Positions 17,948 through 43,043 of a stretch of DNA of 64,000 bases are shown here, in pieces. Below the pieces are notes generated by a model that ran no database searches, was not told where the DNA came from, and saw only the letters and a program-made list of their open reading frames with translations. The stretch's first letter is position 1. Each line of letters starts with the position of its first letter. The stretch lies in NCBI RefSeq assembly GCF_013122565.1, contig NZ_CP053258.1; one strand, 5' to 3'. The DNA comes from Escherichia coli. Its GTDB lineage: Bacteria; Pseudomonadota; Gammaproteobacteria; Enterobacterales; Enterobacteriaceae. A program made the translations under genes and the position numbers.

Positions 17948-17998
17948 TTATCCTTTGTGTCCGGCAAAAACATCCCTTCAGCCGGAGCATAGAGATTA

Positions 17999-27094: not shown

Positions 27095-27195
27095 GCCGGA
27101 TGTGGCGTGAACACCTTATCCGACCTACAAAATCTTGCAAAATCAATAAATTGCAGGACCGATGTAGGCCTGATAAGCGTAGCGCATCAGGCAAC
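27095..27195. repeat. BIME: two REP units in inverted orientation between opgH and yceK
   Basis: GCCGGATGTGGCGTGAACACCTTATCCGACCTACA and GATGTAGGCCTGATAAGCGTAGCGCATCAGGCAA. Confidence 0.8.
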
Positions 27196-36202: not shown

Positions 36203-36658
36203 TTAACGTTGTGTCACGCGAATAGCCATTTGCGACTGTCTCTGCACTACAATTGCCGTTTTTTGAGTACCATACTGTGTAATATTTGCTTTATTACCAG
36301 AACCTTTCTGGATAATCATCGCAGTATTACCATAAGCACCTTGCGAAATACTGGCATCGTTGGCACTGCCCGCCTGATCAATATATGCAAGGTTATAATC
36401 TCCTGTCTGGTCAATCTTTGCCCGGTTGCTACTACCTTCTTGCGCAACAACCGCCAAAAGTTTTGAGCCTCCCTGCCGTAACTGAGCACTATTATTAGTC
36501 CCAGCTTGACCAATTATGGCTGCCTGATTAAATGAAGACTTACTCAATTCATTTACCGCGAAGTTATATTCTGAATTAGCTAAATCATAACCTGCTGCGG
36601 CTGCAATCCCAGGCGCACCCAGTATTGTTAACATCATAAATAACAATTTGTTTTTCAT
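36203..36658 (-). CDS. csgB: Minor curlin nucleator subunit CsgB (151 aa)
   Basis: Translation MKNKLLFMMLTILGAPGIAAAAGYDLANSEYNFAVNELSKSSFNQAAIIGQAGTNNSAQLRQGGSKLLAVVAQEGSSNRAKIDQTGDYN... Confidence 0.94.
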   Translation of the reverse strand: MKNKLLFMMLTILGAPGIAAAAGYDLANSEYNFAVNELSKSSFNQAAIIGQAGTNNSAQLRQGGSKLLAVVAQEGSSNRAKIDQTGDYNLAYIDQAGSANDASISQGAYGNTAMIIQKGSGNKANITQYGTQKTAIVVQRQSQMAIRVTQR

Positions 36659-37410
36659 GTTGTCACCCTGGACCTGGTCGTACATTTAAGAAATTAAATC
36701 ATTTCAACTTGGTTGTTAACGCAACCTGTATTTTGTTAACGCTGCGTTACGATGGAAAGTATGTCTGCGGAAATATTTTTAATAACTCACCCGCGCGTTG
36801 TATTTTTCTTTTTTTGTTCATACCAAAGTATTAAAAGCCACGTAAATACGCTGTTATCTACGCAAAAAATATTTTGTTTTCTTTTAAATCTCCGTTTCCG
36901 CTATCAAAAATCACCAGACAGTCATTCTTCTTGCCCGTCGCTGATTGCTGCGATATGTCTTGCGCACAAGCCGTGACAAACCTCGTCTTTTTGCAGTAAA
37001 AAATTGTCCACGGAGGTGTGGAGAAAAAACAACAACTTTTTACATGACGAAAGGACTACACCGAAATATTTTTTATATGCATTATTAGTAAGTTATCACC
37101 ATTTGTATGATTTTTTAAAATTGTGCAATAAAAACCAAATGTACAACTTTTCTATCATTTCTAAACTTAATAAAACCTTAAGGTTAACATTTTAATATAA
37201 CGAGTTACATTTAGTTACATGTTTAACACTTGATTTAAGATTTGTAATGGCTAGATTGAAATCAGATGTAATCCATTAGTTTTATATTTTACCCATTTAG
37301 GGCTGATTTATTACTACACACAGCAGTGCAACATCTGTCAGTACTTCTGGTGCTTCTATTTTAGAGGCAGCTGTCAGGTGTGCGATCAATAAAAAAAGCG
37401 GGGTTTCATC
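36659..37410. promoter_or_regulatory. csgBAC / csgDEFG divergent intergenic regulatory region (about 750 bp, AT-rich)
   Basis: Long AT-rich gap between divergent csgB and csgD start codons; by established knowledge of the csg locus this carries the sigmaS-dependent csgD and csgB promoters and multiple regulator sites; individual sites not resolved by eye. Confidence 0.7.
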
Positions 37411-38061
<651 letters not shown>

Positions 38062-38479: not shown

Positions 38480-38896
38480 ATGCGTGTCAAACATGCAGTA
38501 GTTCTACTCATGCTTATTTCGCCATTAAGTTGGGCTGGAACCATGACTTTCCAGTTCCGTAATCCAAACTTTGGTGGTAACCCAAATAATGGCGCTTTTT
38601 TATTAAATAGCGCTCAGGCCCAAAACTCTTATAAAGATCCGAGCTATAACGATGACTTTGGTATTGCAACACCCTCAGCGTTAGATAACTTTACTCAGGC
38701 CATCCAGTCACAAATTTTAGGTGGGCTACTGTCGAATATTAATACCGGCAAACCGGGCCGCATGGTGACCAACGATTATATCGTTGATATTGCTAACCGC
38801 GATGGTCAATTGCAGTTGAACGTGACAGATCGTAAAACCGGACAAACCTCGACTATCCAGGTTTCGGGTTTACAAAATAACTCAACCGATTTTTAA
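38480..38896 (+). CDS. csgF: Curli assembly protein CsgF (138 aa)
   Basis: Translation [71 protein letters not shown]... Confidence 0.94.
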
Positions 38897-42955: not shown

Positions 42956-43043
42956 GGTGAGGTGTCCGAGTGGCTGAAGGAGCACGCCTGGAAAGTGTGT
43001 ATACGGCAACGTATCGGGGGTTCGAATCCCCCCCTCACCGCCA
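42956..43043 (+). tRNA. serX: tRNA-Ser (anticodon GGA), serX/serW type
   Basis: 88-nt sequence GGTGAGGTGTCCGAGTGGCTGAAGGAGCACGCCTGGAAAGTGTGTATACGGCAACGTATCGGGGGTTCGAATCCCCCCCTCACCGCCA with long variable arm, anticodon loop CUGGAAA, 3' CCA; divergent from ghrA as in K-12. Confidence 0.95.

Follow-up and report, generated by a model that had tools for sequence, protein, structure and literature searches.

The window, a 64,000-nucleotide stretch of E. coli DNA, contains the two divergent curli operons in the same gene order as in K-12, with csgA and csgC on one side of the csgB–csgD gap and csgE, csgF and csgG on the other. csgB is on the minus strand, with its start codon at 36658..36656 and a 151-residue product that begins MKNKLL (MKNKLLFMMLTILG), while csgD is on the plus strand, with its ATG at 37411 and an open reading frame (ORF) of 216 residues. 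Since the CsgB start ends at 36658 and the csgD ATG lies at 37411, the non-coding gap comprises positions 36659–37410, or 752 bp.

These are exactly the coordinates given in the first-pass annotation, which had described a gap of about 750 bp between divergent curli operons, intact, unusually long and AT-rich. Both the length and the composition were borne out. The gap is the longest in the 43 kb that is collinear with K-12; by the K-12 annotation of that segment, the longest gap is 754 bp, the next longest 393 bp and the median 56 bp. Smith et al. 2017 (PMC5745457) reported the K-12 region, at 754 bp and 65.5% A+T, to be the fifth largest in that genome of those lying between divergent operons; counting intergenic regions of every kind, it is thirteenth in size. 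The A+T content was 65.7% in the gap and 51.2% in the whole window. No other stretch of 752 bp in the core genome of the window (the part shared with K-12) is as AT-rich. The GC content drops to 0.228 between −180 and −1 from the csgD P1 promoter. In a scan of the window, GC values lower than that of the gap were found only in an island at 52–62 kb.

This island is part of a segment of about 21 kb (43048–64000) that is absent from the K-12 neighbourhood and starts right after the tRNA-Ser gene serX (42956–43040). At least 80% of the segment was found in only three of 5426 complete E. coli genomes: PapRG-06-5 (99.6%), A30 and JNE23-001. The annotation of those records describes a CP4-like island (GTPase, DUF932, antirestriction, toxin–antitoxin, JAB) that also includes a chaperone–usher fimbrial operon, with GC content down to 0.29. 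Elsewhere in the window, Rfam matches above the gathering score were found for the PyrC leader (17949–17998, 68.7 bits) and for the ES036/CssrF sRNA (27129–27171, 47.9 bits).

Comparison with K-12 MG1655

Positions 1–43047 of the window were collinear with positions 1140608–1097561 of K-12 MG1655, at 98.57% identity. The csgD–csgB region of K-12 (NC_000913.3, 1103197–1103950) has identical flanking genes in identical orientation, and the two sequences are 99.1% identical end to end, with a length of 752 bp in the window and 754 bp in K-12. They differ by five substitutions (window positions 36815, 36837, 36911, 37033 and 37037) and by two 1-bp deletions in homopolymer runs (about 36863–36870 and 36894–36898, the placement being alignment-dependent). 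There was neither an IS element nor a large indel, and the gap can be called intact, as had been claimed. All seven differences fall between −226 and −450 from csgD P1 in K-12 numbering; the sequence matches K-12 perfectly over the 373 bp nearest csgD and over the 156 bp nearest csgB.

The check proposed in the first-pass annotation, an alignment to K-12 with annotation of the known regulator sites, was run, and placed no indel or substitution in any mapped core site. The elements identical to those of K-12 include the csgD leader, P1, the OmpR D1 site, the MlrA palindrome, the H-NS and RcsB footprint intervals, the CsgD box and the csgB proximal region. At the protein level, CsgB is identical to its K-12 counterpart and CsgD (37411–38061) differs at three residues (S19P, S110A and R116H). 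As for the other curli proteins, CsgA, CsgE and CsgG are likewise identical, and CsgF (38480–38896) carries E63A. There were no nucleotide differences in csgB and one in csgA, well under the window-wide 1.4%.

Promoter and regulator sites on the csgD side

Ogasawara et al. 2025 (PMC12388358) number the promoter by their primers (−335/+67), which sets the csgD P1 start at position 37263; the 5′ end of the RNA-seq transcript ES056 lies one base further on. The elements on this side are listed below, with positions relative to P1 in parentheses:

36955..37071, plus strand: RcdA initial footprint interval (−308 to −192; positions from PMC3535384), which holds the substitutions at 37033 (−230) and 37037 (−226)
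37062..37290, plus strand: H-NS footprint interval (−201 to +28; positions from PMC12388358), 100% identical to K-12
37117..37151, no strand assigned: MlrA-binding imperfect palindrome AAAATTGTGCA-N12-TGTACAACTTTT (−146 to −112), from sequence, conserved across genera
37204..37219, plus strand: OmpR activating site D1, a tandem GTTACA-N4-GTTACA (−59 to −44, centre −51.5), from sequence, conserved and identical to K-12
37230..37257, plus strand: csgD P1 core promoter, with a −35-like TTGATT, a 16-bp spacer and a −10 TAGATT, in a block conserved at 95% or more
37252–37257, plus strand: csgD −10 hexamer TAGATT (−11 to −6), from sequence
37232..37316, plus strand: RcsB footprint interval (−31 to +54; positions from PMC12388358), identical to K-12

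The −35 and −10 hexamers of P1 are probable assignments, made from the position of the transcription start. The published location of OmpR D1 is −51 (PMC13304067), and the MlrA site has been described as a palindrome of about 33 bp between the IHF and OmpR sites (PMC3913822). In the csgD half of the gap, P1 would be driven by OmpR bound at D1 (about −51) and by MlrA bound at its palindrome (−146 to −112). The tract of 77% A+T on this side would be occupied by H-NS, IHF, CpxR, RstA and RcsB, to which it has been assigned by footprinting in K-12. Here and below, we infer binding and regulation by proteins and sRNAs in this strain from experiments on K-12 and Salmonella in the literature.

Consensus searches recovered little of this. 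A sigma-70 consensus scan of the gap missed the real csgD and csgB promoters and returned no more sites than were found in shuffled sequences. We take both to be weak, activator-dependent sigma-S/sigma-70 promoters, and the sigma-70 scan is therefore uninformative. There was no perfect match to the IHF consensus (WATCAANNNNTTR) anywhere in the gap, and the only matches to the CpxR consensus there had two mismatches, which is near background for AT-rich DNA; one of these overlaps OmpR D1 on the minus strand. Because the consensus scans miss the promoters and IHF, the assignment of those sites rests on identity with K-12 and not on motif evidence. The sole perfect match to the IHF consensus near the locus (TATCAAAATATTG) is located at 37653–37665, within the coding sequence of csgD, at roughly +390 relative to P1. 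For Salmonella, a review mentions an IHF site predicted inside the gene, at +273 (PMC13304067).

The csgB side

Three elements were placed at the csgB end of the gap:

36659..36680, minus strand: csgB translation-initiation region, column identity at least 80–95% in 76 species-level genomes, identical to K-12
36758..36763, minus strand: csgB −10-like hexamer CATACT, within an invariant block
36783..36793, minus strand: CsgD box CGGGTGAGTTA, upstream of the csgB promoter, at least 95% conserved in 76 genomes, identical to K-12

We take CGGGTGAGTTA to be the CsgD box by the consensus after Brombacher 2003, and CATACT is probably the −10 element of csgB. Together, the box and the csgB core promoter would form the means by which CsgD turns on the curlin genes.

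In the csgB leader region, a 10-bp sequence occurs twice without mismatch and in direct orientation, at 36713–36722 and 36733–36742; it reads TTGTTAACGC, or GCGTTAACAA when read in the direction of csgB. The copies are 20 bp apart and share an internal palindrome, GTTAAC. The one at 36733–36742, farther from the csgB start, is conserved across genera, the nearer one (36713–36722) less so. We know of no function assigned to this repeat.

Conservation across genera

A scan with the CsgD protein, using one genome per species, returned 80 loci, and the csgB–csgD gap could be delimited in 76 of them. The gap measured 733–802 bp in 74 of these 76 species genomes; the remaining two, both Kosakonia species (L082 and L083), had gaps of 586–589 bp that were without the MlrA palindrome. 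In the alignment of the 76 sequences, blocks conserved at 95% or more comprised the csgB translation-initiation region, the CATACT block, the CsgD box and the MlrA palindrome, followed by OmpR D1, the csgD −35/−10 elements, the 5′ arm of leader stem-loop SL1 and the Shine–Dalgarno sequence.

The spacing within each promoter is equally regular. The CsgD box is separated from the csgB −10-like element by 27 bp in every genus in which both anchors were found. On the csgD side, the distance from the MlrA palindrome to the −10 anchor (the 9-mer GCTAGATTG, which contains the hexamer) is 111 bp in 69 of 72 genomes, divided into 65 bp from MlrA to OmpR D1 and 46 bp from D1 to the −10 element. Phylogenetic footprinting arrives, by an independent route, at the same elements as experiments in K-12 and Salmonella.

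The central spacer

Most of the polymorphism within E. coli is concentrated in one part of the gap:

36839..37082, no strand assigned: central variable spacer, which holds all seven K-12 differences but those at 36815 and 36837

Identity of the spacer to the homologous interval was 0.73–0.74 within Escherichia and 0.59–0.62 for Citrobacter, and fell to 0.50–0.56 in Salmonella and 12 further genera, where the shuffled null was 0.51–0.54. The length of the spacer, on the other hand, was 243–255 bp in all 16 genera sampled. Likewise, the CsgD box and the csgD −10 element were 464–478 bp apart in 72 species genomes, with a standard deviation of 3.4. This narrow range suggests selection on the approximate distance between the two curli promoter modules. 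A limited literature search found no paper stating that the length of the csgB–csgD spacer is conserved, which is weak evidence of novelty.

We considered the possibility that the spacer is neutral filler, and that its near-constant length reflects a low rate of small indels. Identity between genera equals that of the shuffled null, only 1-bp homopolymer indels were seen within E. coli, and there was no clear 10.5-bp phasing in the spacer distances, all of which fit neutral filler, as does the fact that the species compared are phylogenetically non-independent. Furthermore, if length drifted at random by ±1 bp, with one indel for roughly every 13 substitutions, the spread could by a rough estimate come to about 4–6 bp, near the observed standard deviation of 3.4. 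However, the spread of the spacer length (3.4 bp over about 360 bp) is smaller than that of both leaders, which are conserved in sequence and yet vary more in length (standard deviations of 6.7 over about 166 bp and 8.2 over about 123 bp), and indels of 10 bp or more, which are present in the leaders, were absent from the spacer in 72 species from about 20 genera. We give the neutral explanation about an even chance of being correct.

The competing explanation is that the spacer of about 243 bp is constrained in length and not in sequence, the distance itself being under selection and the divergent promoters physically coupled. We put this forward tentatively, as something possible rather than probable. 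Selection on promoter distance would fit the proposal that MlrA, OmpR and IHF act on the distant csgB promoter as well, and that a DNA shape dependent on IHF and H-NS underlies bimodal expression (PMC12713406); IHF and H-NS could, for instance, fold the DNA into a looped or bridged nucleoprotein structure through which MlrA and OmpR reach csgB. If the length constraint is real, natural IS1 insertions in the spacer would be regulatory mutants.

Variation among E. coli strains

A search of 5426 complete E. coli genomes found the region in 5371, with the best match, at 100%, in the baboon isolate PapRG-06-5. For a closer comparison, the window and K-12 were aligned with five genomes sampled across the identity ranking, giving seven sequences in all. 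The gap was 752–755 bp long in the six sequences other than the window, and 25 of the 31 variable columns were located upstream of −160. Four alleles were private to the window among the seven aligned sequences (36837G, the deletion at 36894, 37033C and 37037T), while the other three differences from K-12 were common to most of the aligned strains. The window haplotype at 36855–36930 had exact matches in 20 of 5322 E. coli genomes.

Some E. coli strains, 2018-11-1BCC among them, carry IS1 within the central spacer; the duplicated target of 9–10 bp corresponds to window positions 36912–36921, and both promoters are kept. In one strain, an IS1-associated deletion has removed csgD together with the csgD half of the gap. 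The IS1 loci are those of E. coli 2018-11-1BCC (L094) and GmM062 (L093). The gap in the window contains neither an IS1 insertion nor an IS1-associated deletion.

A gap that looks intact might still behave unlike that of K-12, if lineage-specific variants had rewired or weakened curli regulation. The central haplotype of the window is rare, two of its private substitutions lie within the RcdA footprint interval and another precedes the CsgD box by about 44 bp, and cases are known in which a single-base change in the region altered curli expression (PMC13304067; bioRxiv 10.64898/2026.04.22.719398). However, all of the variants sit where the sequence varies freely from genus to genus, and csgBA expression was unaffected by deletion of rcdA in a recent systematic test (PMC12713406). 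The elements required for expression, namely the OmpR and MlrA sites, the IHF region, P1, the leader and the CsgD box, are all identical to K-12. We consider altered regulation in this lineage unlikely.

The csgD leader

The leader contains the following features, with the sRNA pairing sites and stem-loops numbered from the AUG:

37263..37410, plus strand: csgD 5′ untranslated leader, 148 nt (+1 to +148 from P1), length from PMC4152358, 100% identical to K-12
37313–37327, plus strand: pairing site for RprA nt 60–74 (−98 to −84), 15 pairs, 0/300 shuffles as high
37315–37330, plus strand: pairing site for McaS nt 40–55 (−96 to −81), 16 pairs, 0/300 shuffles as high
37331..37381, plus strand: stem-loop SL1 (−80 to −30), from the minimum-free-energy fold and the consensus fold
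37332–37350, plus strand: pairing site for OmrB nt 2–20 (−79 to −61), 19 pairs, 0/300 shuffles as high
37337–37350, plus strand: pairing site for OmrA nt 2–15 (−74 to −61), 14 pairs, 2/300 shuffles as high
37400..37426, plus strand: stem-loop SL2, which encloses the Shine–Dalgarno sequence and the AUG, from the consensus fold

SL1 and SL2 have been published as −83 to −28 and −10 to +16, respectively (PMC4152358). Covariation was assessed by aligning the leaders of 50 species-level genomes, which represent about 20 genera. In SL1, compensatory double changes were found at 12 of 26 pairs (7/7 in the apical helix and 5/7 in the basal helix), and 94% of the alignment cells were paired, compared to 38–50% when the 3′ partners were slid by 1–3 columns. 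The covariation score was 0.340, compared to 0.172 for shuffled alignments, and none of 500 shuffles scored as high. SL1 is thus backed by strong covariation across 50 enterobacterial species. The pairs of SL2 are nearly invariant, and covariation therefore gives no evidence on this stem-loop either way.

Examination of the csgD 5′ untranslated region for sRNA targets had also been proposed in the first-pass annotation. We scanned the leader for contiguous antiparallel pairing with OmrA, OmrB, McaS, RprA and RydC, using the sRNA sequences from K-12 and 300 shuffles. (An initial approach with ViennaRNA duplexfold, applied to whole sRNAs against the whole leader, yielded long gapped duplexes that were barely better than shuffles, and was replaced.) Complementarity to the K-12 OmrA, OmrB, McaS and RprA was found at the published sites, which place OmrA/B pairing inside SL1 and McaS and RprA directly upstream of it (PMC4152358, PMC3634460). 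The OmrA/OmrB site corresponds to the 5′ arm of SL1 and is conserved at 90% or more across genera, and the RprA and McaS sites overlap within 37313..37330, directly 5′ of SL1. SL1 and its flanks would thereby serve as pairing sites for the repressing sRNAs OmrA/B, McaS and RprA. For RydC, no contiguous run rose above the shuffled background in this ungapped scan, which is blind to an interaction that needs a pseudoknot to unfold; the published RydC–csgD interaction requires such unfolding of RydC (PMC4152358). GcvB, like RydC, has been reported to be an sRNA that acts on the csgD leader.

The leader also matched the Rfam family RF02752 (“ES056 sRNA”) at 37264..37355 on the plus strand, scoring 119.7 bits, where the gathering score is 43, over model positions 1–92. 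The K-12 coordinates of ES056 (Rau 2015, PMC4676190) map to −147 to −56 from the AUG, and its position relative to csgD is the same in the window and in K-12. ES056 is a curated Rfam family, the match is far over the gathering threshold, and the RNA was detected by RNA-seq as a discrete transcript of 92 nt (PMC4676190), as would be the case if 37264–37355 were an independent gene for a trans-acting sRNA. However, its 5′ end coincides with the csgD P1 start, one base past 37263, and its 3′ end, at −56 from the AUG, lies inside the apical helix of SL1, where a terminator scan came up empty; the RNA-seq study itself reports none of the Rho-independent type for its novel transcripts (PMC4676190). 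Moreover, RprA and McaS reportedly cause decay or premature termination of the leader (PMC4152358, PMC3634460), which would yield such a fragment. We consider an independent sRNA gene very unlikely; in our reading, ES056 corresponds to the initial 92 nt of the csgD leader and is a fragment of it rather than a gene in its own right.

Small open reading frames and terminators in the gap

Mechanical ORFs of 41–74 residues exist in the gap, such as one of 74 residues with an ATG start at 36752–36976 on the plus strand, but an unannotated small protein-coding gene is highly improbable: the 74-residue ORF sits in the part without sequence conservation across genera and is frameshifted in K-12 by two 1-bp indels, giving a 64-residue product with an unrelated C-terminal half, and the other ORFs have TTG starts in AT-rich sequence and overlap footprinted DNA. 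The small ORFs were rejected because of the frameshift between the window and K-12, and no conserved small ORF was found in the gap. Two terminator-like hairpins, at 36711–36726 on the plus strand and 37022–37007 on the minus strand, were also discarded; neither is conserved, and the second is broken by polymorphisms within E. coli.

Discussion

The gap at 36659–37410 almost certainly serves csgBAC and csgDEFG as a common control region, in a wild lineage of E. coli that is closest to the baboon isolate PapRG-06-5. The literature on the csg region supports the claim of the first-pass annotation that it is among the most heavily regulated intergenic regions in E. coli. What we describe is already known biology in its ordinary, intact state, and the original observation brings nothing new on the system. 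Commitment of E. coli to a biofilm of curli and cellulose is decided at this region, and its intactness indicates whether a wild strain can regulate biofilm formation like K-12; at the level of sequence, it indicates that this strain can.

The corresponding region of Salmonella enterica, between csgD (agfD) and csgB, has the same architecture and spacing as the window. It shares the conserved blocks, and its OmpR D1 site is at about −51. The gap in S. diarizonae is 760 bp. Salmonella SL1 has been retained through compensatory changes. The central spacer, however, cannot be aligned to that of the window (identity 0.54, compared to 0.53 for the null), and the Salmonella leader diverges from that of the window in the first 55 nt or so and in the RprA/McaS region. 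Differences in regulation have also been described: in Salmonella, the effects of H-NS and RcsB are the opposite (PMC12388358), and McaS is absent (PMC3634460).

The csgD leader also resembles those of rpoS and flhDC, which are likewise long and structured and have overlapping sites for several Hfq-dependent sRNAs (PMC4152358, PMC3634460). Unlike in those leaders, the sRNAs that target csgD all repress, and OmrA/B act at a distance, in SL1, rather than at the Shine–Dalgarno sequence (PMC3634460).
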